The notes under the pieces were generated by a model. That model did no database searches. It saw only the letters and a list, made by a program, of their open reading frames with translations, and had not been told where the DNA came from. A stretch of 32,000 bases of DNA. Origin: Thermoproteus tenax Kra 1. Its GTDB lineage: Archaea; Thermoproteota; Thermoprotei; Thermoproteales; Thermoproteaceae. The position numbers were made by a program, and so were the translations under genes. This document shows, piece by piece, positions 8,075 to 31,127 of the stretch; position 1 is the first letter of the stretch, and each line of letters begins with the position of its first letter. The stretch spans positions 150,001 through 182,000 of the forward strand of contig NC_016070.1 in assembly GCF_000253055.1 (NCBI RefSeq). The letters run 5' to 3'.

Positions 8075-8090
8075 CCGCCCTAAAGGGCGG
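8075..8090. terminator. Hairpin CCGCCC-TAAA-GGGCGG, 10 nt after the stop of the 7640..8065 CDS
   Basis: This is a perfect 6-bp stem with a 4-nt loop. The core CCTAAAGGGCG recurs at 8278-8288 and, as its reverse complement, at 24434-24444. Confidence 0.4.
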
Positions 8091-8309
8091 GGGCCTCACT
8101 GCGGGGATCTCGCCCGTTGCCCGGGGTTAATGGGCCGCGGCGGAGCGGGCATTGCGGCGTCCCCCCGCCAGGGCCGTCCCTCGTTGAAGTTCGCCCCCCG
8201 CGCGGCGGCCGCCGCGGCCCCCTCCCTCTCTGCGTCTTCACCTGCTCTGCCCTGAAAAAATATAAAATCCATCCCCACCTAAAGGGCGAGGCTTTCTGTC
8301 GTAAGCCTC

Positions 8310-10892
8310 TTAGGCCAGAAGTTTGGCCACTCCCCTCAGCTCCTCCATGGAGTAGCCCAGGGCCTCCAACACTTGCTCCACGGTTGTCGCCATATACTCA
8401 AGGTATTTCCTATCGTCGATCTCGTCTATTCTGGCCAGCTGTATGGGCTTGACGCCCAGGGCATCCCTCGTCTTGACGTAGATTATCACGTCGCCGCGCC
8501 CCAGCTTGATGCCCATCGCCTTGCTGAGCATCTCGGCCGCCTTCACGTGTTGCGGCTTGTTCTTAGTGTATTCGTCCAAATCCTTATTGAGGGTCGTCTT
8601 AATGGCCAACTTGTCCAGAGTTATCTTCCTCTCCCTCAGCTTTGACTCATAGTCTCTAATTAGCGCCGAGATCTCGTCTCTAGTCTTTAATATGTCGTCG
8701 AGAGTGTGAACTGAGCGGAGCCTCTCCACTATGTCGTCCATGAGATCTTTGACGAAGCTGGGAGCGTTGCGCTTCTTGCCGACAAGGCCCTTGATCACGA
8801 CGCCTCCATCGGCTGTGACGCCCAAATAGTTCTTTTTACGGCCGCTGAACAGGACAAACCGGTAAACTTTGTCTAAATCGATGTCGATGCCCAGCTGCGA
8901 TGCGTAGTCCATAAGCCCCTTTATTTTCTCGTTGTCTGCGTTCAGGAGGAACAAGCTGTCAGTGTCTCCGTAGATGGGCTCCATCCCCAGCTCGATCGCT
9001 CTGAGCACAGTGCTGGTCATGACGTATCTAGCAAGAGCTGTGGTGAGCTCAGCGACGGGCGGGCAATACAACGGGAAGGTCTCGGCTCCGAACACACCAT
9101 ACGACGCATTTATGAACACCTTCATAGCGCTCTGGACCACATCGTATAGAGTCCTCTCCTGTTGAGTGGAGGCCGATTTGGCCAACTTCTTATACACATG
9201 TACTCTCAGATCGCGGAGTATGCCCACCAGAAGGCTGGTTATTCCCCTCCTCTTTTTACAGATCCAGTGTGGGAGCTCTGCGATTGGCCTCTCGGCGTTC
9301 TCCTTGTCTTTACAGTTGACTGTCTCGTAGGAGAGATTCCATTTGCTGATCACCGAGGGGTACAGAGAAGCGAAGTCCAGGACGTAGACGTTGAAGAAGA
9401 CTCCGGCGGGGGGATCGAGGACAACAGCCCCTGCGTATTTCTTGCCCTTGATTATAGCTTTCGTGTAGGCCTCCCCTCTGGAGGCTATGATGTCCTCCTT
9501 GTTGGGGATGAGCCAGCCCCTCCTCCTGTGTTCGAAGTAAAGCATATTTCTAATCCACGCTGAGACTTGGGAGCGGGTCAGATCCTCGGGCGGCAGCTTG
9601 GCTATGCGCGACAGAAGGATTACAAGCTTCATAACGAGCTCGTCGTTATACACAGTGAAATACAGAGTGATGAAGGCATCGCGGAAGTTATATTCAGCCA
9701 GCTCGTCTAGAGGCAGAGAGGAGATTACGGACTGTCTCTCTATTTTGCCTATGCCCAACACCGCCGACGCGATGGCGTCAAGCCCCCTCTCGCCTCTGTA
9801 TACTCCTCCGAAGGCGTAGACCTCGATGGCCTTTATTGCGAAGAACTTGTACAGATCTATATGGATGCCGGGGGCGACCGTCACGTAGTCCCTCCTCGCC
9901 ACTATCGGTATCTCCTCCTTTTTGAATCCCAAGGCTAGGGCGCGGTTGTAGAGGTAGGGCAGATCAAAGTTGTCGCCGTTGAAGGAGACTATCAGAGGAT
10001 ACTGCACGAGGGTCTTGAAAACTTCGGCGATCAAGTCGTACTCGTTGTCAAAGAACAAGACCTCGTACTCGGCGTCCTTAAGTGCATCGAAGTCGACCTT
10101 TACGTCGGGTCTCTTGAGCAAGAGCACCCTCCTCAGCCCGTCGGTGCCCACTAGGGCCACTGAGACGACCTCATATAGCGCGTCCTTAGGGTTGGGCACT
10201 TTGTTCTCCTGAGGAGTGAACACCTCTATGTCTATCGCGACTCTCTTTATGTGGGGTATAGGCGCTTGGAAGAGGGGGATCCAGTTGGCGGCCTCCTCTC
10301 TCTCATCGTCGGAGGAGAACACCGTGGTGAGGCTCTTCAATACGTCCTGGGGTATATCGACTTCCACGGGGACTAGCCCGTTGCCCTCGCTCCGATACCA
10401 CATCCCAGGTAGAATAGCTCTGTCGAACAAGTAGCTGTGGTGGTACTTTATTCTGGACTCCCAAGTCTTGGGGAGCAGCTCTCTTATCGACCTTCTGCCG
10501 CCTCCTATGGAGAGGGGGTCCTTCGCGTATACCTTAGTGAGCTGGACTGTGCGGTCCGCCAGAGCGTCGTACTTCGACACAACCTCCAGGTGGCTGAAGC
10601 CGGGGTGTTTCAGAACATCGGGGTACTTCTCGGCGATAACCTCTGGGGGCACGTCGGTTATCAGATAGGGCCTGTGTCTAGTGTTGTCGTACCAGTAGTA
10701 GACAGTATCGCTCTGGGGGTCGTAGAGCTTGACCAACGCCTTCCCCTCAGCGCCGTCGTAGGTGACCGAGAGGACGATAGAAGGAGGTATAGACGCCGAT
10801 AGGGCCCCCTTTATTCTATACTCAGCTACCTCCTCCTCTTCCGACTCTCTAACTTCCTCCTCTTCGATGAACTCCTCCTCTTCAAAGGCCAC
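8310..10892 (-). CDS. polB: Family B DNA polymerase (860 aa; size suggests crenarchaeal PolB1-type replicative enzyme)
   Basis: Exo I VAIDIEV, Exo II NGDNFDLPYL and Exo III YNFRDAFITLY are present. So are Pol A DFASLYPS, Pol B KVFINASYG and Pol C YGDTDS. The N-terminus is acidic, the start codon is GTG, and there is no intein. Confidence 0.95.
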   Translation of the reverse strand: MAFEEEEFIEEEEVRESEEEEVAEYRIKGALSASIPPSIVLSVTYDGAEGKALVKLYDPQSDTVYYWYDNTRHRPYLITDVPPEVIAEKYPDVLKHPGFSHLEVVSKYDALADRTVQLTKVYAKDPLSIGGGRRSIRELLPKTWESRIKYHHSYLFDRAILPGMWYRSEGNGLVPVEVDIPQDVLKSLTTVFSSDDEREEAANWIPLFQAPIPHIKRVAIDIEVFTPQENKVPNPKDALYEVVSVALVGTDGLRRVLLLKRPDVKVDFDALKDAEYEVLFFDNEYDLIAEVFKTLVQYPLIVSFNGDNFDLPYLYNRALALGFKKEEIPIVARRDYVTVAPGIHIDLYKFFAIKAIEVYAFGGVYRGERGLDAIASAVLGIGKIERQSVISSLPLDELAEYNFRDAFITLYFTVYNDELVMKLVILLSRIAKLPPEDLTRSQVSAWIRNMLYFEHRRRGWLIPNKEDIIASRGEAYTKAIIKGKKYAGAVVLDPPAGVFFNVYVLDFASLYPSVISKWNLSYETVNCKDKENAERPIAELPHWICKKRRGITSLLVGILRDLRVHVYKKLAKSASTQQERTLYDVVQSAMKVFINASYGVFGAETFPLYCPPVAELTTALARYVMTSTVLRAIELGMEPIYGDTDSLFLLNADNEKIKGLMDYASQLGIDIDLDKVYRFVLFSGRKKNYLGVTADGGVVIKGLVGKKRNAPSFVKDLMDDIVERLRSVHTLDDILKTRDEISALIRDYESKLRERKITLDKLAIKTTLNKDLDEYTKNKPQHVKAAEMLSKAMGIKLGRGDVIIYVKTRDALGVKPIQLARIDEIDDRKYLEYMATTVEQVLEALGYSMEELRGVAKLLA

Positions 10893-10908
10893 GGATATAA
10901 GAAGATCG

Positions 10909-10920
10909 GTGTTTAAACAC
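10909..10920 (-). promoter_or_regulatory. Palindromic TATA element GTGTTTAAACAC upstream of polB
   Basis: This perfect 12-nt palindrome is centred about 22 nt upstream of the polB GTG at 10892, consistent with a leaderless or near-leaderless transcript. Confidence 0.45.
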
Positions 10921-11041
10921 GTACCTCGCCCGCAGATAATACATATCCTTCTTAAATTTTAATATATTATTATAATTAAACATAAAAATAAAATCCAATA
11001 AAATAAAAATGTAAACTAAGTAATATAATAGTATTTAAAAG

Positions 11042-11524
11042 ATGAAAAATAATAGAGTTAGTGTATTTCTATCAAGGGGAAAGATTAATAAAGTGCCTCG
11101 CAAAGAGTACAATATGGTCATCTACGTTTCACCGCATAAGAATGACGTTAAGACCACGATGTCCACAGATCTCAAGAAGACATTACTCTCAGAAGTTATA
11201 GGAGAGGTTATACAAGGCGTAACCATACTGGACTCGCGAGGAGTGCCGATAATACACCAGCTGCCCAATACGTTGACGGCGAAGACGTTGCGGCAGGTCT
11301 CAAACCTCATAGAGCTTGTCAACATAATTAGACAGAACCAAGACGAGAGCCTCGGCGACTTTCAGTATATAATGATAAAATATATGAACTATAAGGTAGG
11401 CATCTTCGAGCTCCCCAACAAGAAGGGGTGGCTCATCGTCTTCCTAAACCCATTGTGGCACATTGAAAACGTCATCCCGAAGATAAGGCAGTTTTCCCAC
11501 AAGATAGCCCAGATAGTCACTTAG
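11042..11524 (+). CDS. Roadblock/LC7 (MglB-like) domain protein; start uncertain
   Basis: From MSTDLKK onward the pattern matches the Roadblock/LC7 layout (GVTILDSRGVPII....; LGDFQYIMIKYMNYKVGIFEL...GWLIVFLNP....). The first 40 codons are extremely A/T-rich. In-frame ATGs at 11114 and 11159 are alternative starts. G+C is lower than in the neighbouring genes. Confidence 0.55.
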   Translation: MKNNRVSVFLSRGKINKVPRKEYNMVIYVSPHKNDVKTTMSTDLKKTLLSEVIGEVIQGVTILDSRGVPIIHQLPNTLTAKTLRQVSNLIELVNIIRQNQDESLGDFQYIMIKYMNYKVGIFELPNKKGWLIVFLNPLWHIENVIPKIRQFSHKIAQIVT

Positions 11525-21811: not shown

Positions 21812-23173
21812 ATGTCCACAGAGATAGGCCTAGTGGTCAGCGGGGCCTCGATATCCTCTATACCGGTCCAGATCTATAGGCAGGCGGAGCGCCACGCCCA
21901 AGAGGAGCAGATGGTCATCGTCAGAGACGCGGCCGACCCCGAGGTGGCTATACTGGGATTCCTCCGAAGGATCACGAAGCTGGAGCCGATAGTCAGAGAC
22001 AAGGTGAGGACGCCCTACGTCGATAAGCCAGACATGTTGGACTACGGAGTCCTCCTGCCCTATACCACGGCTGTGGTCAAGCCATATGTTGAGCTGGACC
22101 AACGCGGCTCAGTGAGGGAGGTAGAGCACATCCCCACTCCGGGCTCCAAAGTGTATTTGGCCAAGGGCGGCCCGCCCGTCAAGATCTCGCCCCAGAGGGC
22201 CGCCGTCGTGGGGACGCACAAGTACTCGGGGTGGGAGGTGCCGTTGGACCTCGCCTATATATCCCACCATGTCGGCGTCTTTGGAGCAACCGGCATGGGG
22301 AAGTCGAGGCTCGTCCGGGCCCTCTTGGGAGAGCTCGTCAAAACAGGCTCCCGCATCGTCGTCTTCGACCATACGGGCGTAGACTATGCCCCCTTCTACG
22401 AGAACGTAGTGAAGTCCTCCGAGGTCAAAATACCGCCCAACATCTTGGCATCAGTTTTGGCGAAGCTGGCGGATCTGCCGTGGCAGACCTACGGCGAATA
22501 TATCGAGATCGCAACGATGACCTTCGAGGGACAGTGGAGCAGAGACGCCTTCTTGGCGCACGTCAGAAGGACCATGAAGAGGCTGAACGCCCGGGACACC
22601 ACGACGGAGAGAGTCGAGCTCTTCATAAAACAGCTCGTGGATCCCCAGTTTTTCTCAGATCTAAACAAGAGGACCAAGACGCCGGCCGACATCCTTGCGT
22701 CCCGGCCCTACCCAGTCGTAGTGGACTTGAGCTACGACACTGAACTCTCAGTGAAGCAGGCGATAGTCGCCTCAGTGATCGCCGAGGCGTGGGCCGAGGT
22801 GAGGAGGGCGAGGGAGCCGCGCCCTACCGTCTTCGTGATAGACGAGGCGCAGAACTACGCGCCCAGCGAGTGGGCCATCTCAAAGGACCCCATAGAGACG
22901 ACGGCAAGAGAGGGCAGGAAGTGGGGCCTCTCTCTGATATTGGCAAGCCAGCGCATCGCTGGGGATATAGACCCCTCCATAAGGGCGAACCTCGGGACGG
23001 TCTTCTTCAGCAGGCTCACCGCCCCCACGGACCTAAGGGAGATCGTAGCATACCTCGATTTAGCCGATGTGAACGAGGGCGTGCTCACTCAGCTCCAGCC
23101 CAGGGAGTTCTTCGTCGCAGGCCTGATGAATCCGCTGAGGAAGCCCGTTCTTTTGAAAATCAAGGAGATCTGA
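21812..23173 (+). CDS. HerA/FtsK-like (DUF87, COG0433) P-loop ATPase
   Basis: The N-terminal region resembles a HAS barrel. Walker A GATGMGKS and Walker B VFVIDEAQNYAP are present, and the C-terminal SQR...D looks like an arginine-finger region. Confidence 0.85.
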   Translation: MSTEIGLVVSGASISSIPVQIYRQAERHAQEEQMVIVRDAADPEVAILGFLRRITKLEPIVRDKVRTPYVDKPDMLDYGVLLPYTTAVVKPYVELDQRGSVREVEHIPTPGSKVYLAKGGPPVKISPQRAAVVGTHKYSGWEVPLDLAYISHHVGVFGATGMGKSRLVRALLGELVKTGSRIVVFDHTGVDYAPFYENVVKSSEVKIPPNILASVLAKLADLPWQTYGEYIEIATMTFEGQWSRDAFLAHVRRTMKRLNARDTTTERVELFIKQLVDPQFFSDLNKRTKTPADILASRPYPVVVDLSYDTELSVKQAIVASVIAEAWAEVRRAREPRPTVFVIDEAQNYAPSEWAISKDPIETTAREGRKWGLSLILASQRIAGDIDPSIRANLGTVFFSRLTAPTDLREIVAYLDLADVNEGVLTQLQPREFFVAGLMNPLRKPVLLKIKEI

Positions 23174-23445
23174 GGGACTGTTGGCGCCCGGCCCTACCCG
23201 GGAGCGTATTTTGGCCCCCAGCCTAGGCGACGTCGTGAGGTCTCGTCGTCGGCCAACTGCTACGTCTCTCGGCTGCATGGCGTATAACAAAGATAGAGGG
23301 GATTTCACTGGTTACACATATCTTATGAGATGTAGTTTAAATAGAATTAGTTTATTCTCAAATTTATAAATACTGATGTATATATTGTAGCTCTCTTTTT
23401 AAGATATCGAATGAAAGAAAAAAGCTGGACAATTCAATACTATAC

Positions 23446-24267
23446 GTGAACGCAAAAAAGATAGCATTAATATTAATCTTGGTTTTAGTCGGCAGCACGT
23501 TGGGTGCCGTCGTTGCGGAAAACAATGTGCACCTCGTTGTGGTGAAGGGCGGCGGAGAGGTGAATTCGAGCTGTATCGGGAACTGTCTGATTGTAGAGGC
23601 CGTGCGCTCAGCTCTTAAGAAGCCTCCATACCCAATAGTGAACAAGTCGATATTCCCGGGTACGTTAGTGACGTTTGAGATGCCCAGAGGCTCCCAGTAT
23701 AAGTATGTATCGCTCGTGGTCAACAAAAGCGCAATATATGTGTACCAGTTCAACAGCCCGAGGGACTATAGACTCTACGCGATTGTAGATAAGCCGCAGA
23801 GGACTGTCGAGACTGAGATCGTCTACAAAGAGGGCAATTATACATATTCTGCTGAACTCGTCCTTGCGCTTTACGAAGTTCCGATACCCGGCGGCGATGC
23901 CGTACCGGTCCCCCACCTCAGTTATTCTGTACCGTCCTACACGGGCGACCGCTTGACAACTAACACGACTGCTGCCGGCTGGTTTTACATAAATCCAAGC
24001 ATCGCTGTGGTGGGTTTGATTCCCGACGGCTCGGCCTACGCTAATCCGCCGATGGCGTTGTGTACATCAAATGAGGAGGTTGGCGGGGTTGGAACCTTCG
24101 CGGCGTATACCTATGTACGCGCCCGCTATGCATTATTGGATTGCCCAGTGACTACGGCGATATTCACCTGGCCTTCGGTGGGCATGGACGCCAACGGCAA
24201 TGTTTACTATCCAACCTCGATACCGGCCACGAAGTTTGTAACGTTTGCGTGCGGGTGTTCTGGGTAG
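23446..24267 (+). CDS. Hypothetical secreted or surface protein
   Basis: The start codon is GTG. The N-terminal signal/anchor is KKIALILILVLVGSTLGAVVA. There are at least five N-x-S/T sequons and several Cys, including a C-terminal FACGCSG. The upstream region is A/T-rich and G+C is lower than in core genes. No family was recognised. Confidence 0.6.
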   Translation: MNAKKIALILILVLVGSTLGAVVAENNVHLVVVKGGGEVNSSCIGNCLIVEAVRSALKKPPYPIVNKSIFPGTLVTFEMPRGSQYKYVSLVVNKSAIYVYQFNSPRDYRLYAIVDKPQRTVETEIVYKEGNYTYSAELVLALYEVPIPGGDAVPVPHLSYSVPSYTGDRLTTNTTAAGWFYINPSIAVVGLIPDGSAYANPPMALCTSNEEVGGVGTFAAYTYVRARYALLDCPVTTAIFTWPSVGMDANGNVYYPTSIPATKFVTFACGCSG

Positions 24268-24414
24268 GCTTCATACCCCCGATTAGTATAGGGGAAGGCG
24301 GTTAAAATAACGGAAAAACCAAACCTTTTTCAAAGAACCTCTGTTTATCCTTTTAATCGCCTGTGCAACCCGGTTGAGCTCTGAATACTGCAACGCCCCC
24401 TCTGCAACCACGCA

Positions 24415-24445
<31 letters not shown>

Positions 24446-24803
24446 TGGGAGGGGGTCATACAGCCACCTATTGAGGACATCTAGGTAGTCTCCAAGGTCC
24501 CTCCAGCTCCCACGTTGTGCGCAGATGGTGGGACATCGCCGCGGTGATGGAGAGACTGATCCTGAGACTCAGGTAGGGACGTACCGCCCGGCCCTACACA
24601 CTACGCCCAATGTAATGTCCACGACATGTGCGTGGAGATGCACCGCTGAGGGATATAGAGTTTAAATAATCGCGCATGGGAAATGTGTGAGTTTTCTTCT
24701 GGAAGAACTCGAGGGCTTTTCTGCGAGCGGCTAGGAGGGACCTTGAGGATGGTTTATGGAATCTCGCCGTGTTTCATGCAGAGCAGGCGCTTCAGCAGGA
24801 AGA

Positions 24804-24846
24804 ACCCGGGCGGGGGGTTGAAGGTCGCCGCCGGCGTGTGTCACGT
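24804..24846 (+). repeat. Inverted-repeat copy A (partner at 26755..26797)
   Basis: acccgggcggggggttgaaggtcgccgccggcgtgtgtcacgt matches the reverse complement of 26755..26797 at 38 of 43 positions. All 5 differences are G here versus A there. Confidence 0.85.
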
Positions 24847-24917
24847 GGGCTGCAAGGTTAGATGGTTAAGGGTTTATCTCAGGAAAAAGCATATTAAGTA
24901 TTACGAATATTATTGCC

Positions 24918-26447
24918 ATGAAGAATCTATATATCGCAGCAATAATTGTAGCAATAGTAATAGTAGGAGTAATTGCGGGAATAATGCTGACAAGAACACC
25001 ACCATCAGTAACAACAACAGTGTCAACTACCACAATAACAACTGTTACCACAATAACAACTGCGCCAACTACTACTACAACAACTGGACCCATAGTATTC
25101 TATACATGGTGGGCTACAACGGGGAAAGTGGCATTAAATCATTTAATTCCAGTATTTGAACAGCAAACGGGGATAACAGTACAACCCTATATAGTTCCAG
25201 GGGCAGGAGGTACTAACGCAAAATATGCAATATTAGCACTAATAGAAGCAGGGAAACCACCAGCAGCCTTCCAAGTACATTTTGGCCCAGAAATGATATC
25301 CTATGTAGAGGCGGCACCCAACAGAATAAACTCCTTCGTAAACATGACGCCATACGCAATGGAGTGGGATCTATTTAACAATGCAGTGTATGAAGTACTA
25401 CAAGCAGGTGCATTTAACGGAACATTACTATCAATACCAGTGAATGTGCACAGAGGTGCTTTATTATACGTTAATGTACAATTGCTAAGGGAATACAACC
25501 TACCATTCCCATATAACTTTAGCACGTTGGTCTACGACACAGTACAACTGGCAAAACATGGAATACACCCATGGATAATACCGGGAGGAGACGGAGGATG
25601 GGATCAATTCAACCTATGGGAGGATATATTCCTGTCCTTAGCGGGACCACAACTATATAATGAGATGATGTATGGAACAATAGACCTAAACAACGCGACA
25701 GTACAAAAATTAATAAATGAAACCAATTACTGGTTCCTAAACTTCACATCCTATGATTATCCAGGGTGGCAATCAATGACATGGACCCAAGGGCTGACGC
25801 TATTAGTACAGGGAAAAGTAGCATTCCAGGCAAACGGGAACTGGCTAACAAACTACGCTTATGACTTCCTAAACGTAACAGCTTATCCACCACTACCCCA
25901 ATACATAAACAACCCGAATGTAACACTAATAGAAGCCCCATTCCCAGGGACGCAGGACTATTACGCGCTAGTAATAGACTCCATTGGGATCCCAGTAGGA
26001 CCGCAAGACCAACAAGCTTTGCAATTTGCCCACTTCTGGTCCTCATATCAAGGACAGGAAATATGGACAAAGTGGAAGGCAGTTACTTATTATAAGAATG
26101 CTACTGATTGGTTTAATACCCCTGCTCAGTGGTACGATTATCAGCAGTTAATCAACGATTCCTCTCGTCCGCAAGACTTCGTTTACCAATTATCGGATGG
26201 TGGAGTTTTCGACGACGTATTTGCCCAAATAGACTCTGGATTACTAACATTACAACAAATAGGACCCGCGGGATTATCAGTATGGAATTCTACACTATAC
26301 TCAGCAATGCATGAAGAAGAACAACAATGGTTGGCTGCCGCAAAACTAGGGCTAGGATACCTGGGATTTCCTGGCCATCCGTTTGCAAACTACTATCCAC
26401 CATGGGTTAAGGACCCATCGAAGTACGGATTAGAACAAACCTCTTAG
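24918..26447 (+). CDS. glcS: Sugar ABC transporter substrate-binding protein (GlcS-like) with N-terminal membrane anchor and Thr-rich linker
   Basis: The hydrophobic N-terminus is LYIAAIIVAIVIVGVIAGIML, followed by a Thr-rich linker and then a large Trp/Tyr/Asn-rich solute-binding domain. It is the first gene of the low-GC operon. The symbol is by analogy to S. solfataricus glcSTUV only. Confidence 0.8.
   Translation: MKNLYIAAIIVAIVIVGVIAGIMLTRTPPSVTTTVSTTTITTVTTITTAPTTTTTTGPIVFYTWWATTGKVALNHLIPVFEQQTGITVQPYIVPGAGGTNAKYAILALIEAGKPPAAFQVHFGPEMISYVEAAPNRINSFVNMTPYAMEWDLFNNAVYEVLQAGAFNGTLLSIPVNVHRGALLYVNVQLLREYNLPFPYNFSTLVYDTVQLAKHGIHPWIIPGGDGGWDQFNLWEDIFLSLAGPQLYNEMMYGTIDLNNATVQKLINETNYWFLNFTSYDYPGWQSMTWTQGLTLLVQGKVAFQANGNWLTNYAYDFLNVTAYPPLPQYINNPNVTLIEAPFPGTQDYYALVIDSIGIPVGPQDQQALQFAHFWSSYQGQEIWTKWKAVTYYKNATDWFNTPAQWYDYQQLINDSSRPQDFVYQLSDGGVFDDVFAQIDSGLLTLQQIGPAGLSVWNSTLYSAMHEEEQQWLAAAKLGLGYLGFPGHPFANYYPPWVKDPSKYGLEQTS
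25005..25088 (+). repeat. Low-complexity Thr-rich (ACN-codon) linker within the binding protein
   Basis: The segment encodes SVTTTVSTTTITTVTTITTAPTTTTTTG. Read out of frame, it produces the spurious N/Y-rich ORF 24683..25159. Confidence 0.8.
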
Positions 26448-26663
26448 TAATAACCGGATCAAATAGTATTCCTCTTTTTTAACTTGAGTAAACTGCCCCG
26501 TGTCTACGATCACGACTTCGATGGCGGCTATTCCGGTATCTTCTGCGGCGAGAGAGACCTTACTTGTGTTGGCGATAACGATGAGTTTTGCATCAATATT
26601 GAACGCATCTACAGCGCAACCAAGGTCGGCGGTCTCTACCTTGTCATACCCTAGTTTTTTCAC
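26430..26663 (-). other. Questionable 77-aa ORF or possible gene remnant in the GC-richer spacer between glcS and glcT
   Basis: The ORF lies on the opposite strand inside the roughly 340-bp piece whose composition resembles the host. It overlaps the glcS stop by 18 nt. No motif was recognised. Confidence 0.25.
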
Positions 26664-26754
26664 TCATAGAGTTGTGCGTATTGGGCAGATTGTCGATGCA
26701 CACAAGCTCTACAGGCTCATAAGGGAGAGGGGCTTCTGAAGTTGAAGTCGGAAT

Positions 26755-26797
26755 ACGTGACACATGCCGGCGGCGACTTTCAACTCCTCGTCCGGGT
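26755..26797 (-). repeat. Inverted-repeat copy B (partner at 24804..24846)
   Basis: See copy A. It lies 33 nt upstream of the glcT ATG. A weaker third relative is at about 29808..29846, in the same orientation as B. Confidence 0.85.
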
Positions 26798-26829
26798 AAA
26801 TATATATACCACATAATTTATAATCGATA

Positions 26830-27687
26830 ATGAAAAAGAGTACTATAATCTTAGTAATTCCTACAGCGCTCTTTTCCGCGATATTATTATACTTAGTGAT
26901 ATGGAACGCTGTAATATCCTTTACTAATTGGTCTTTATTTAATCCTAAAATGTCTTTCGTGGGTTTGGAGACTTATTTTAGCGTGGTAAAAACTTTTCAG
27001 TTCTCCAATTCTATGCTTCATTCGTTAGAATTATCAGCAAGTTTAGTTACAATTGGTAATATTCTAGGAATATTGTTTGCAGGTTTGCTATATTTTCTAT
27101 CATCCAATAAAGCTAGATCGGTATTTCTTTCAATCATACTTTATCCATTAGCAATATCCATGGCTGTTAACGCCTTAATTTGGTTATGGCTGTTTAATAT
27201 AAACATCGGTATTGATTGGCTGTTGGTGAGAATAGGTTTACCTCAGCTTCCCTGGTTATCCTCTACATCTACGATGTTTCCCAGTTTGATTTTAGTAACA
27301 ATATGGGCTTACACTGGAATTGCAACGTTATTTTATTTGGCCGGGTTCATGAATATAGATAAATCTGTAATAGAGGCCGCGAGGTTAGATAGTGCAAGTT
27401 CCTTCAAGATATTATATAAAATATTATTACCTAACTCATTTAATTCGTTTATTGTGTCGACGGCTTTGTTGTTCCTATTTTCCTTTAGGATATTCAGCTT
27501 ACCTTATATACTATCTGGCGGGCCTACTAATATTTTCCTTCAGACTGCCGTAGTATATATGTATTACCTTTTTACTGTTGAGTTCTTCTCTCAAGCTACT
27601 GCAGTAGCTACAATAATTACCGTTATCGCTTCCGTGGTAATAATTCCTTATGCGCTAATTATAATGAGGAGGTGGATTAGGAAATGA
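26830..27687 (+). CDS. glcT: Sugar ABC transporter permease (GlcT-like, MalF/CUT1 type)
   Basis: Six TM segments are predicted, with an EAA-like loop IEAARLDSASSFKILYKILLP. Codon usage is A/T-rich. Confidence 0.88.
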   Translation: MKKSTIILVIPTALFSAILLYLVIWNAVISFTNWSLFNPKMSFVGLETYFSVVKTFQFSNSMLHSLELSASLVTIGNILGILFAGLLYFLSSNKARSVFLSIILYPLAISMAVNALIWLWLFNINIGIDWLLVRIGLPQLPWLSSTSTMFPSLILVTIWAYTGIATLFYLAGFMNIDKSVIEAARLDSASSFKILYKILLPNSFNSFIVSTALLFLFSFRIFSLPYILSGGPTNIFLQTAVVYMYYLFTVEFFSQATAVATIITVIASVVIIPYALIIMRRWIRK

Positions 27688-28532
27688 GACCGGTTATAAA
27701 AGCGAGCTTACATTATTTAGCATTAAGTATAGTGAGTATTTTATGGTTAATACCGGTTTACGCTATGATAATTAACGGATTTAAGAGTAATCTAGAAGCA
27801 CTATCAAGCCCAGTTTTATCTCCTCCGAGATCTTTTTCTCTAACTGCTTATATTACAGTGTTTAATGATTTAGCGAAACCCTTGATAAACAGTCTAATAG
27901 TGGTAATACCCACGGCTTTCATCTCAGCATTTTTGGGAGCTATGGGAGCTTATTTCTTCTATACTTTGTCTTATTCCTTTAGTAAGTTCTCATCTACAAT
28001 TAGCGATTTATTATTCTCCTTAATCGCGTTAGCCACTTTCATACCTTATCAAGCCACATTAATTCCACTAACTAGATTAATAGTCAGCATGGGTATTCTA
28101 GATACTTATATAGGCATAATTTTTGCAATGCTTATATTCTATATTCCTACTGGGGCATTACTAATGTCGATGTTCATTTCAGTTATCCCGAGAAGTCTAA
28201 TAGAGGCCGCTAAAATAGATGGAACCGGCGACCTGAAAATATTTATGAAAATAGTACTTCCTCTATCTATGCCAGGCTTCATATCAACTCTAATATTTAT
28301 AATAATACAATCATGGAATAACTTCTTCATTCCTCTAATTCTAATTACTACTCCAAATATGAGGTTAGTTTCAGTTGCAGTGCAATCATATACTGGAGGA
28401 TACGGCACATTATATAATGACACATTTGCGGCGGCAATGATAGCCAGTATAGTTCCGCTGGCAATATTTATATTTCTTGGAAGATACTTCATTAGGGGCC
28501 TAATAGCACTAGGAGGAGGTAAGGGGGTATAA
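27684..28532 (+). CDS. glcU: Sugar ABC transporter permease (GlcU-like, MalG/CUT1 type)
   Basis: The gene has an ATGA overlap with glcT. The EAA loop is IEAAKIDGTGDLKIFMKIVLP, and six TM segments are predicted. Confidence 0.88.
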   Translation: MRPVIKASLHYLALSIVSILWLIPVYAMIINGFKSNLEALSSPVLSPPRSFSLTAYITVFNDLAKPLINSLIVVIPTAFISAFLGAMGAYFFYTLSYSFSKFSSTISDLLFSLIALATFIPYQATLIPLTRLIVSMGILDTYIGIIFAMLIFYIPTGALLMSMFISVIPRSLIEAAKIDGTGDLKIFMKIVLPLSMPGFISTLIFIIIQSWNNFFIPLILITTPNMRLVSVAVQSYTGGYGTLYNDTFAAAMIASIVPLAIFIFLGRYFIRGLIALGGGKGV

Positions 28533-29593
28533 TGGTTAGGATTATAGCTAAGAACATTTCTAAATACTTCAAGAAGGGTAAGAATAGAGTAGTAGCCTTA
28601 GAAAACATAAATCTAACAATTGAGAATGGCGAAAGATTCGGAATCTTAGGACCTAGTGGAGCAGGAAAGACAACGCTATTGAGGATAATAGCAGGACTTG
28701 AGGTACCATCAGAAGGGGAGTTATACTTCGATGATAAATTAGTGGCAAAAGGCGGGAAAGTAATAGTTCCACCAGAAGATAGGAGAATAGGAATGGTATT
28801 CCAAACCTGGGCGTTATATCCTAATCTAACAGCCTATGAGAATATAGCATTCCCACTAACTAATATAAAATTAAGTAAAGAAGAGATAAGAAAAAGAGTA
28901 GAAGAAATAGCCAGGATATTAGATATAACTCATGTATTAAACCATTATCCGAGAGAGCTATCTGGAGGACAGCAACAAAGAGTAGCCTTAGCAAGGGCAC
29001 TAGTAAAAAACCCCTCGCTTCTACTATTAGACGAACCATTTAGTAACTTAGATGCAAGAATAAGAGATAGTGCAAGGGCACTAGTAAAAGAGGTTCAAAG
29101 CAAGCTAGGAGTAACATTGTTAATAGTTTCCCATGATCCGGCAGACATATTTGCACTAGCAGATAGAGTGGGAGTCTTAATCAAAGGAAAACTAGTTCAA
29201 GTAGGCCCACCAGAAGAAATATATAATAAACCTATATCTATAGAGGTAGCATCACTAATAGGAGAAATAAATAGGATAGAAGGAAAAGTAACGAAAGAAG
29301 GAGTAATAATAGGAAGCTTCAAAATACCAGTAAGCGTTAGTTCAGATAGGGCATTAATAGGGATTAGACCCGAAGACATAAAAATATCGAAAGAACCGAT
29401 CGAGGAAGAGAAATGGATATTAGTAGGAAAGGGAAGAGTAAAAGTAGTAGGTTATCAAGGTGGATTTTTCAGAGTAACAGTAAGTCCATTAGATTCAGAG
29501 GAAGAAATTGTAACTTATTCAGACCACCCAATAAAGGCAGGAGAAGAAATATTAGTATATGTGAAAAAAGGATCGATAAAAATATTCACTTAA
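28532..29593 (+). CDS. glcV: Sugar ABC transporter ATPase (GlcV/MalK-like)
   Basis: Walker A GPSGAGKT, LSGGQQQR, LLLDEPFSNLD and a C-terminal OB-like regulatory domain are present. Long blocks match my recollection of the crystallised S. solfataricus GlcV. They include MVRII.KN.SK.FKKGK, GERFGILGPSGAGKTT, IGMVFQTWALYPNLTA, DSARALVKEVQS, SHDPADIF and PLDSEEEI.TYSDHPI. Confidence 0.93.
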   Translation: MVRIIAKNISKYFKKGKNRVVALENINLTIENGERFGILGPSGAGKTTLLRIIAGLEVPSEGELYFDDKLVAKGGKVIVPPEDRRIGMVFQTWALYPNLTAYENIAFPLTNIKLSKEEIRKRVEEIARILDITHVLNHYPRELSGGQQQRVALARALVKNPSLLLLDEPFSNLDARIRDSARALVKEVQSKLGVTLLIVSHDPADIFALADRVGVLIKGKLVQVGPPEEIYNKPISIEVASLIGEINRIEGKVTKEGVIIGSFKIPVSVSSDRALIGIRPEDIKISKEPIEEEKWILVGKGRVKVVGYQGGFFRVTVSPLDSEEEIVTYSDHPIKAGEEILVYVKKGSIKIFT

Positions 29594-30093
29594 TTTTTGT
29601 TCTCTCAACTAATTATTACTAAAGTTTCTGATCCTAAGGGTTAGCGTTCGCTAGGGAGGTGACGCCTGTGGAGCCTAGGGCTATTGTCGCCGTCGACGTC
29701 AACTGTCTCGACCACTAAAGGTTGGTCTCGTGGCCGACGGCCGAGCCGTGGAGTTGTCGAAGTTCCCCAAGAGGGAGCGGATAGAGAAGACAAAGCAACC
29801 AGGTTTTTCCTCCGCACCGGCGACTATCACACTTTTAACCTCGTCCTCTTGTTTCACGAACGGCATCTGGCCCCGGGGCGGTTGACGGGGGCGCAAAGAC
29901 GGCGAAAATCGGCCGTTAGACGCCCTCTCGCCCCGGTGTACCCGGGGCGGGCCCTTGAGCCCCCTCGGGGGCAAGAGAGAGGTAGGGGGACGTTAGGCAC
30001 ACGTTTAGGCCCTCTGCCTGTACCGAAAAACGCGGACTTTCACTTGCGAGGAGGGGAACCGCCTCTAGGCGCATCCATAGGGGTTGGACAGAA

Positions 30094-30105
30094 CTTTTAT
30101 AAAGG
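30094..30105 (+). promoter_or_regulatory. TATA-like element cttttataaagg upstream of the PLP-enzyme gene
   Basis: It lies about 30 nt upstream of the in-frame GTG at 30132 and inside the longer track ORF that starts at 30084. This argues for the downstream start. Confidence 0.45.
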
Positions 30106-30131: not shown

Positions 30132-31127
30132 GTGCACGAATGCCTTGAGGCTGTCGCAGAGCTTCTGAGGAAGGGCAGAGTAGTCGCCGATGACAAATCG
30201 GCTCCCTGCCTCTCTTTGGTCTTCCTGCGTAAGGTCTCCTCTGGGGAAACCCTCGAGCTATCCGAGCTGTACCCAGCCGTAGATCCCTATAGAGTCTTCG
30301 AGAGCCCACTGGAGCTGTTGTTGAAGGGAGGGCCGACCCCGCTCCTCAAGGTCGGCGAGAGGCCCAAGGAGGCTTGGGCGAAGTTGGAGTGGTACAATCC
30401 GTTCAGCAGGAGCATCAAGGATAGGACGACGTACGCCCTGTTGAGGTCTGTCAACGGCGATAGGCTTGTGGAGGTATCAAGCGGCAACGTAGCCCTGGCG
30501 CTGAGCGCCATGGGGCTCCTCATGGGGAAGAGAGTGAAGGTCTATGTGCCGACGGCGGGCAGATACGTAGAGCCCTTCCTAGAGATCTATGGCGTTGAGC
30601 ACGAGGTCCTGGACGTCACTATGACCGTTGAGGCGTTGGAACACATCAGAAGCGATGTAGCCAAGGGCGCGGTGCACACGAACCAGTTCGAGAACGACGC
30701 AAACTTCTTTGCGCATATACGCACAGCGGCAGAGCTCGACTGGCAGCTTCAACGCAGGGGGAGGAGGCCCGACTTCATCGTGGCGGGCGTGGGCACCTCG
30801 GGCCATTCGGCGGCCCTCGGCTTCTACTTCTCTGTGAGGTACAAGTCGAAGTTGGTGGCGGTTCAGCCAAAGGACTGGATCCCCGGCCTCAGGAGGGTCG
30901 AGACAGGGGTGAAGTGGCTGAAGTGGGTCGACGCAGAGGTAGTCGACGTATCTTTCGAGGAAGCTATGAAGGGCGTGAGGGCTCTCGCCAGAAAGTTCGG
31001 GATACTGGCCGGCATAAGCTCAGGCGCCGTGTACTACGAGTACCTAAGGAGGAGCGAGGAGGGAGTCTACGCCATGGTGTTCCCCGACGACCTTTTCAAA
31101 TACTACGAGGTGTTGAGGAGCCGCTGA
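30132..31127 (+). CDS. PLP-dependent Trp-synthase-beta-fold enzyme of the cysteine synthase family (CysK/CysM/OPS-sulfhydrylase-like)
   Basis: KLEWYNPFSRSIKDR carries the PLP Lys. NQFENDANFFAH and the Gly loop GVGTSGH are also present. The start is uncertain: the track gives TTG at 30084, and I prefer GTG at 30132, downstream of the TATA element. Confidence 0.82.
   Translation: MHECLEAVAELLRKGRVVADDKSAPCLSLVFLRKVSSGETLELSELYPAVDPYRVFESPLELLLKGGPTPLLKVGERPKEAWAKLEWYNPFSRSIKDRTTYALLRSVNGDRLVEVSSGNVALALSAMGLLMGKRVKVYVPTAGRYVEPFLEIYGVEHEVLDVTMTVEALEHIRSDVAKGAVHTNQFENDANFFAHIRTAAELDWQLQRRGRRPDFIVAGVGTSGHSAALGFYFSVRYKSKLVAVQPKDWIPGLRRVETGVKWLKWVDAEVVDVSFEEAMKGVRALARKFGILAGISSGAVYYEYLRRSEEGVYAMVFPDDLFKYYEVLRSR

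Follow-up and report, generated by a model that had tools for sequence, protein, structure and literature searches.

The low-G+C block at positions 24870-29640 of the analysed stretch of the Thermoproteus tenax Kra 1 chromosome encodes a predicted GlcSTUV-type glucose ATP-binding cassette (ABC) importer, which the T. tenax lineage very probably gained from a Saccharolobus lineage near S. caldissimus. The stretch, hereafter the window, comprises 32,000 nt (NC_016070.1, positions 150,001-182,000), and the published genome coordinate equals the window position plus 150,000. The block has a G+C content of 0.383, compared to 0.561 for the remainder of the window, which bears out the abrupt drop in composition described in an initial annotation made from the sequence alone. 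The drop is stepped, with 0.418 in the glcS fragment (24870-26455), ~0.47-0.63 in the spacer (26456-26797) and 0.350 in glcTUV (26799-29636), so that the earlier estimate of about one-third holds for glcTUV but not for glcS, at 42%. The higher G+C content of glcS is largely native to the gene, because donor glcS has 39% whereas donor glcTUV has 32-36%. The shift to A/T-ending codons is equally clear: the G+C content at third codon positions (GC3) is 0.25-0.36 in the four glc genes versus 0.71-0.79 in ten host genes of the same window. As also anticipated, the genes on either side of the block retain host composition in the windowed G+C profile.

Four intact open reading frames (ORFs) occupy the block, at 24918-26447 (glcS), 26830-27687 (glcT), 27684-28532 (glcU) and 28532-29593 (glcV). 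The initial annotation had read them as a binding protein, two permeases and an ATPase, and search against the NCBIfam equivalog models for GlcSTUV (NF040930-NF040933) agrees, with bit scores (cut-offs in brackets) of 793 (500) for GlcS, 439 (360) for GlcT, 425 (340) for GlcU and 545 (450) for GlcV. Alignment of T. tenax GlcV against the S. solfataricus GlcV structure (PDB 1OXS) gave 284 identical residues out of 350 (81.1%), with longest identical runs of 20 residues, very close to the ~80% given in the initial annotation. The ATPase also lies far nearer to GlcV than to other ATPases, as had been claimed, since 1OXS scored 641 bits in the PDB search and the next relatives only ~260 bits. GlcV contains the motifs expected of an ABC ATPase subunit, namely Walker A (GPSGAGKT at 40), LSGGQ at 143, Walker B (LLLLDEP at 163) and the H-loop (SHD at 200), in addition to matches to the Pfam domains PF00005 and PF17847 (8e-31), the latter being the GlcV-type C-terminal domain.

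Protein similarity search against 5.8 billion proteins, from which the best 120 GlcV matches and the 119 GlcS matches (E <= 1e-100) were considered, placed the nearest relatives in Sulfolobales. The best GlcV relatives are those of S. caldissimus (92% identity) and of a metagenomic lineage (91%), followed by S. islandicus (80%), Sulfolobus tengchongensis (79%), Sulfurisphaera (77%) and Metallosphaera (74%). For GlcS, S. caldissimus is likewise the nearest among the matches listed, with 91% identity across the core, and the full-length protein is 75-89% identical to its Sulfolobaceae orthologues; no GlcS or GlcV closer than the S. caldissimus type was present among these matches. In comparison, GlcV of Vulcanisaeta and Thermocladium is only 50-70% identical, and GlcS and GlcV of such Thermoproteales reach 50-79% overall, against 91-92% for S. 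caldissimus. Among the same listed matches, the sole Thermoproteus entry is the GlcV of T. tenax itself, and Pyrobaculum does not occur. In a neighbour-joining tree of GlcV, the T. tenax protein is sister to the pair formed by S. caldissimus and the metagenomic lineage in 100 of 100 bootstraps, inside Sulfolobaceae. Among these sequences, GlcV (P0017, 70%) and GlcS (P0135, 79%) of Vulcanisaeta sp. AZ3 sit close to the Sulfolobaceae clade, and this GlcS also lacks a C-terminal tail, so that the same transporter may have crossed between orders a second time, independently.

The affinity extends to the nucleotide level. The glcTUV fragment forms a single blastn alignment of 2857 columns with 90% identity to positions 8258-11105 of the S. 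caldissimus locus (L001), and the glcS fragment aligns at 85-86% to the minus-strand glcS of loci L001 and L003. Gene by gene, identity to S. caldissimus and the metagenomic relative is 90.6-92.0% for glcT, glcU and glcV and 84.5-86.4% for glcS (90.6-91.6% and 84.5% for S. caldissimus alone), compared to only 72-74% for the block against S. islandicus, which is closely related to S. solfataricus. Moreover, ~45 nt past the glcV stop codon, from 29594 to ~29640 and on the minus strand, align with the 3' end of a major facilitator superfamily (MFS) gene in S. caldissimus, the metagenomic relative and S. islandicus, with homology ending at ~29636-29640. This segment is a relic of the donor's MFS sugar-transporter gene, which lies next to glcV and convergent with it. 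T. tenax is an anaerobe. S. caldissimus, a facultative anaerobe with a growth range of 65-93 °C and pH 1.5-6.0 (PMC9022530), occupies a niche that overlaps that of T. tenax, for which glucose use and a growth optimum of 86 °C are reported (Siebers et al. 2011, PLoS One 6:e24222, PMC3189178).

Comparison with four other Thermoproteus species (loci L007-L010) showed that the insertion site is empty in the relatives. In these species, the gene of a HerA-family ATPase and the cysteine synthase gene cysM are directly adjacent, separated by only ~140-260 bp. The same two genes delimit the T. tenax locus, with HerA (TTX_0186; 21812-23173, plus strand; Pfam DUF87/HerA; 81-86% identical to the four Thermoproteus orthologues) as the conserved left flank and cysM (TTX_0191; 30132-31127, plus strand; Pfam PALP; 67-73% identical to the orthologues beside HerA) as the conserved right flank. 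The T. tenax-specific insert between them runs from 23177 to ~30085, and includes on the left the segment 23177-24869 and on the right ~450 nt of non-coding GC-rich (61%) DNA at 29641-30085, both missing from the sister loci. The initial annotation had suggested checking whether the locus is empty in relatives between the gene at 23446-24267 and cysM; the glc block is indeed missing from them, but so are that gene and ~1.5 kb of non-coding GC-rich DNA, and the insert measures 6.9 kb rather than 4.8 kb. Altogether, the atypical composition, the phylogeny in conflict with that of the host and the empty syntenic site make the block a horizontally transferred genomic island in the operational sense, and the best matches in Sulfolobales, together with the nesting of the T. 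tenax copy in Sulfolobaceae, uphold the inter-order transfer of a whole sugar-uptake system proposed in the initial annotation.

Between HerA and cysM, the four sister species carry a tiny ORF of ~17-19 codons (MC[TA]PPS[KE]VKK[EK]...) that is preceded by an AT-rich box of its own and lies on the minus strand at 1399-1428 of L007, 9879-9908 of L008, 9909-9938 of L009 and 9916-9945 of L010; part of the differences between species in this ORF are synonymous. It is missing from the T. tenax window, where the 6.9-kb insert sits. Because this spacer ORF is gone, the event was a replacement and not a pure insertion.

The block consists of two donor-derived fragments that have been rearranged relative to each other. 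In S. caldissimus and S. islandicus, glcS diverges from glcTUV across a shared intergenic region of 176-190 nt. By contrast, glcS of T. tenax is co-directional with glcTUV on the plus strand, inverted relative to Saccharolobus, at a distance of 382 nt that includes ~340 nt of non-donor DNA. The order glcSTUV given in the initial annotation is therefore the same as in Saccharolobus, but the orientation differs. Donor homology of the glcS half begins at ~24870, ~45 nt 5' of the conserved ATG, and extends to ~26455; that of the glcTUV half opens at 26799, 31 nt ahead of the glcT ATG, and extends to 29636. Of the 176 nt between the divergent donor genes, the central ~80 nt are gone, and non-donor sequence stands in their place, including a filler of 299 nt with 47% G+C (26456-26754).

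Each of the two promoter-proximal ends adjoins one arm of an inverted repeat of 43 nt, which encloses glcS and the filler. The left arm (24804-24846), GC-rich and not donor-like, ends ~25 nt before the donor homology of the glcS promoter, and the right arm (26755-26797) stops one base short of the donor homology of glcTUV. The arms, both GC-rich, are complementary at 38 of 43 positions without gaps, and a core of 23 nt was reached in none of 100 shuffles. The five mismatches are without exception G/A transitions of a single direction (C>T on the plus strand, right arm), a pattern that may reflect one-strand cytosine deamination. The repeat either served the inversion as substrate or is the scar that it left; candidate routes are homologous recombination between pre-existing repeats, snap-back or templated synthesis in end joining, and a decayed mobile element. 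An arm gave no exact match in the viral or JGI metagenome collections. In agreement with the initial annotation, neither a tRNA gene within the 32-kb window nor an integrase or transposase domain in the neighbouring ORFs (Pfam scans) was found. Flanking direct repeats and a target-site duplication are also lacking, and the internal inverted pair is the sole repeat.

The two fragments differ in their divergence from the donor. Measured against its nearest relatives, T. tenax has a synonymous divergence (dS) of 0.28-0.38 in glcTUV and 0.57-0.69 in glcS, compared to 0.13-0.23 between the two donor relatives themselves. Given this contrast, either the true donor is unsampled or the transfer is not very recent, and, together with the position of T. 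tenax as sister to the S. caldissimus/metagenomic pair, it indicates that S. caldissimus is probably not the actual donor. The transfer claimed in the initial annotation is thus supported, but its recency can only be read as relative.

The higher dS of glcS is also what would be expected if glcS and glcTUV had been acquired separately, on two occasions or from two Saccharolobus sources, and had ended up next to each other. Consistent with such a history, the metagenomic relative is slightly nearer to T. tenax glcS than S. caldissimus is, the shift in GC3 is strongest in glcS (see below), and non-donor DNA lies between the fragments. However, glcS is the fastest gene between the two donor relatives as well (0.23, versus 0.13-0.19 for glcTUV), and the ratio of T. 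tenax-donor to donor-donor dS is 2.4-2.9 for glcS and 2.0-2.5 for glcTUV; since these ratios are similar for all four genes, a single source for both fragments is favoured. Furthermore, the same species gives the best match for both fragments, and a single donor intergenic region supplies the end point of both, with one arm of the same inverted repeat beside each, as a single break-and-inversion predicts. We therefore regard two separate acquisitions as unlikely.

After its arrival the cluster appears to have been maintained and slightly adjusted to the host. The ratio of non-synonymous to synonymous divergence (dN/dS) between T. tenax and the donor relatives is 0.09-0.12, which indicates that the glc genes are under purifying selection. 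To follow the composition, we counted the unpolarised asymmetry at third positions between T. tenax and both donor relatives: at 130 sites a G or C in T. tenax faces an A or T in both relatives, and the reverse holds at 62 sites (p = 1e-6). GC3 has moved only ~0.03-0.08 towards the host value of ~0.74, so that amelioration, which according to the initial annotation had barely begun, is indeed small but already measurable. The counts per gene are 63:25 for glcS, 29:8 for glcT, 20:8 for glcU and 18:21 for glcV, that is, the host-directed shift falls along the cluster to nil in glcV; candidate causes of this gradient are expression level, time since arrival, and an effect of strand or position. 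Parsimony polarisation with distant outgroups was dropped because the donor branches also gave an excess of AT>GC changes. Such an excess is a known artefact with saturated AT-rich outgroups.

In addition to these changes, both termini of GlcS differ from the donor type. The T. tenax protein starts with a single hydrophobic segment followed by a Thr-rich linker, matching the N-terminal anchor and linker described in the initial annotation. However, a net deletion of 13 codons has removed the motif YSLVRGLSSTQ, which in S. solfataricus is the prepilin-type, PibD-processed signal, whereas the start codon and ~45 nt upstream are still donor-derived. The motif YSL[VA][RK]GL[ST]STQ is kept in all eight copies examined from Saccharolobus, Sulfolobus and Metallosphaera javensis; T. 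tenax GlcS carries neither the class III signal pattern ([KR]G[LI][ST] before the hydrophobic segment) nor its GlcS form (YSLxxGLSSTQ). At the other end, the last ~44 residues, which form a hydrophobic tail present in every Sulfolobaceae copy examined, have been lost, and the loss coincides with the end of donor homology. Nevertheless, the shortened GlcS covers positions 1-444 of the 444-position NCBIfam model, and its end coincides with the natural end of GlcS proteins from outside Sulfolobaceae. Binding proteins of T. tenax are reported to have an N-terminal anchor and an ST-linker without a pilin-like signal (PMC3189178). The loss of the prepilin-type signal and of the tail would thus have given GlcS the uncleaved N-terminal anchor typical of the binding proteins of its new host.

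The expression signals seem to have travelled with the genes. A TATA-like element, AAATATATATA, lies at 26798-26808, 22-32 nt before the glcT ATG. An oligo-T run at ~26473-26482, where the filler opens, follows glcS and could terminate its transcripts, and another oligo-T run follows glcV. For its part, glcS keeps donor-derived upstream sequence, with a TATA-like element at ~24880. Because both fragments thus retain upstream sequence of the donor and are followed by oligo-T runs, two transcription units, glcS and glcTUV, are plausible, each of which would be expressed from a donor-derived promoter.

By homology to the S. solfataricus system, the products would form a binding-protein-dependent glucose ABC importer of the CUT1 class. 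GlcS, anchored in the membrane by its N-terminal helix and spaced off by the Thr-rich linker, would bind glucose; GlcT and GlcU would form the permease channel, and a GlcV dimer would hydrolyse ATP. The proposed specificity for glucose draws on the identity of GlcS to the Sulfolobaceae proteins over its full length and to S. caldissimus in the core. The cluster could instead be a non-functional passenger that is neither expressed nor assembled and is slowly decaying, and the loss of the GlcS signal motif and tail, the raised non-synonymous divergence (dN) on the T. tenax lineage, the presence of three other predicted sugar-binding proteins in T. tenax and the absence of TTX_0188 from the glycosylated binding proteins found by mass spectrometry (PMC3189178) would all suit such a fate. 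By contrast, all four ORFs are intact after a dS of ~0.3-0.6 with a dN/dS of ~0.1, the catalytic motifs of GlcV are all kept, the GlcS core spans the whole family model and is truncated at a point where other GlcS proteins naturally end, and the TATA-like elements and oligo-T runs are retained. Altogether, a mere passenger seems quite unlikely.

We propose the following course of events for the gain of the importer from the Saccharolobus lineage. The transfer took place once T. tenax had separated from the other Thermoproteus species sampled, and the DNA arrived between HerA and cysM without a recognisable integrase, att site or tRNA, for which reason illegitimate recombination or break repair is the probable route. 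The divergent glcS-glcTUV unit of the donor was broken within the shared intergenic region, and the glcS half now lies flipped, bracketed by the inverted repeat and followed by ~340 nt of non-donor DNA before glcTUV. Purifying selection and a slight drift of GC3 towards the host followed.

Several observations weigh against this scheme. The dN of glcT, glcU and glcV is ~5-10 times higher between T. tenax and the donor relatives than between the donor relatives, which is compatible with either relaxed constraint or adaptation to the new host. The glcV gene shows no GC3 shift, with 18 versus 21 sites. The four binding proteins that mass spectrometry revealed did not include TTX_0188 (PMC3189178). 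Finally, our searches yielded no source for the GC-rich filler and flanks or for the inverted repeat, and the integration mechanism is a deduction.

As a tentative and rather doubtful extension, the locus might be a readable scar of integrase-independent capture between orders, in which the donor DNA broke in the promoter region, break repair made or used the 43-nt inverted duplication and added templated or captured filler, and GlcS was subsequently "domesticated". T. tenax reportedly encodes DprA and ComF, which is unusual for a crenarchaeon (PMC3189178), and the scar could therefore exemplify transformation-type uptake. If true, it would be a natural case, from a hyperthermophilic archaeon, of DNA that was taken up in this way and then integrated by illegitimate recombination.

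The preferred history, a single gain from a Saccharolobus lineage, has two further competitors. An assembly chimera or contamination, in which Sulfolobales DNA present in the same laboratory or sample was misjoined into the T. tenax chromosome, has its sole support in the sharp composition breaks at ~24.87 and ~29.64 kb. The sequencing laboratory also works on S. solfataricus; however, with 72-74% identity to S. islandicus and 90% to the nearest known genome, the block is no copy of a laboratory strain. Misjoined DNA would also hardly bear the lineage-specific changes seen here, namely the inversion of glcS, the GC-rich filler, the inverted repeat, the losses from GlcS and the shift of GC3 towards the host. 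The genome is a closed circle of 1.84 Mb (PMC3189178), and a repeat of 43 nt would presumably be too short to mislead the assembly of Sanger reads, all of which makes a chimera highly improbable. Vertical inheritance of ancient Thermoproteales genes that are AT-rich for functional reasons, which the GlcS and GlcV homologues in Vulcanisaeta and Thermocladium and the partly gene-specific composition (glcS is GC-richer than glcTUV in Sulfolobaceae too) might suggest, is refuted by the low identity of those homologues compared to S. caldissimus, the empty site in four Thermoproteus species, the fully supported position inside Sulfolobaceae and the relic of the donor's neighbouring gene.

The remainder of the insert differs in character from the donor fragments. 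Its left part contains an AT-rich promoter-like stretch (23300-23445, 26% G+C), an orphan gene of intermediate composition for a secreted-looking protein (TTX_0187; 23446-24267, plus strand; G+C 0.52, GC3 0.61) and ~600 nt of host-like GC-rich non-coding DNA (24268-24869). TTX_0187 has only two relatives, both in Vulcanisaeta distributa with 39-40% identity, and no Pfam or NCBIfam match. Its UniProt name, "NurA-like nuclease", has no support from these families and probably derives from the position beside HerA. Membership in a sugar-uptake module was also rejected, as the Vulcanisaeta homologue sits in an unrelated neighbourhood. A sequence of 27 nt (ACAGAAAGCCTCGCCCTTTAGG...) with a small palindrome, GCCCTTTAGGGC, occurs in the GC-rich stretch left of glcS (24417-24443), just after the PolB gene (8278-8304) and also at ~8075-8095. 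Because it recurs in the non-coding DNA of the window, the GC-rich stretch left of glcS is suggested to be intergenic DNA of T. tenax type.

Searches with the filler and the right flank gave little. The 299-nt filler resembles neither the donor nor the sister loci nor any other part of the window, and when it and the GC-rich flanks were compared by tblastx with all of these and with the Vulcanisaeta loci, nothing meaningful emerged. The ORFs of the filler and of the right flank (29641-30085) matched no Pfam or NCBIfam family. A 77-aa ORF in the filler, compared with 1.84 billion representatives, found only itself and one repeat protein, a spurious match that is an artefact of repetition. Rfam search of the non-coding stretches gave nothing at threshold, and a match to COG3610-DE at 26.6 bits, against a gathering score of 73.5, can be ignored. 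In the right flank, a peptide resembling the TnpB RuvC-I region (AIVAVDVN...DGRAVEL, ~29650-29800) was considered as a transposase remnant and rejected, since Pfam searches at E <= 10 were empty for both the ORFs and a frame-joined composite.

Beyond the insert, the promoter of cysM (TATA at ~30095-30102) aligns with that of the sister species. The mechanically called ORF of this pyridoxal-phosphate enzyme begins at a TTG at 30084, whereas the sister alignment and the published annotation (180132) support the GTG at 30132, which sits ~30 nt 3' of a conserved TTTATAAA box; the cysM mRNA is probably leaderless. The rest of the window is core chromosome and encodes PolB, HMG-CoA reductase, ProRS, thiolase and geranylgeranyl reductase, among others. 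A second patch of low G+C content lies at 11042-11524 (0.41 in a 500-nt window). Its ORF of 160 aa (G+C 0.43, GC3 0.60) overlaps the HMG-CoA reductase gene tail to tail by 8 nt and has no Pfam match.

The low-GC block and its affinity to Sulfolobus have been public since 2011, so that it is a known feature of a known kind, and the glc locus reveals no new kind of system. Siebers et al. (PMC3189178) listed "Low G+C region 1" at 174,858-179,643 (4786 nt, 38.3% G+C; Table S1), which corresponds to 24858-29643 of the window, where we measured 38.2-38.3%. They described its products as sugar ABC transporter subunits, and gave Sulfolobus best matches for TTX_0188, 0188a, 0189 and 0190 (Table S8). 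The NCBI annotation already uses the names glcS and glcV. In contrast to the present analysis, that paper does not call the region a transfer, and neither a donor, a comparison with sister genomes nor the rearrangement figures in it; no paper on the transfer itself was found in the literature searched. Added here are the donor lineage, the empty site, the boundaries at base level, the inversion with its inverted repeat, the remodelling of GlcS and the statistics of amelioration. The locus thus offers a very clean and datable transfer of a complete nutrient-uptake system between archaeal orders that share hot, sulfur-rich habitats, with a donor traceable to ~90% nucleotide identity. Because the donor is identifiable, the empty site known and both ends mapped nearly to the base, it has value for teaching and as a benchmark for amelioration rates in hyperthermophiles, integrase-independent gene capture and the refitting of a foreign membrane-anchored binding protein to host secretion.

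Compared to known systems, the T. tenax importer resembles S. solfataricus GlcSTUV (GlcV structures PDB 1OXS-1OXX) in its four components, in the motifs and PF17847 domain of GlcV, and in the anchor and Thr-rich linker of GlcS. However, its host is a neutrophilic-to-mildly-acidophilic anaerobe of Thermoproteales, its glcS is co-directional, and its GlcS lacks both the class III signal motif and the C-terminal hydrophobic tail. The nearest known relative is the locus of S. caldissimus HS-3 (AP025226), which shares the sequence 3' of glcV, i.e. the convergent MFS end, and whose intergenic region aligns with the promoter-proximal sequence of both glcS and glcT of T. tenax, except for the middle segment that T. 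tenax has lost. The architecture common to Saccharolobus glc loci, with a divergent glcS, a spacer of ~176-190 nt and an MFS gene convergent on glcV, is not preserved in T. tenax, which keeps only the ~45-nt MFS relic. The integrase islands of Crenarchaeota, which are targeted to tRNA genes by SSV-type integrases and flanked by direct repeats, likewise combine foreign composition with an accessory metabolic function. In contrast to these islands, the T. tenax block has no tRNA gene within 32 kb, no recombinase domain and no flanking direct repeats, and instead terminates on either side in a truncated donor gene and has an inverted repeat in its interior.

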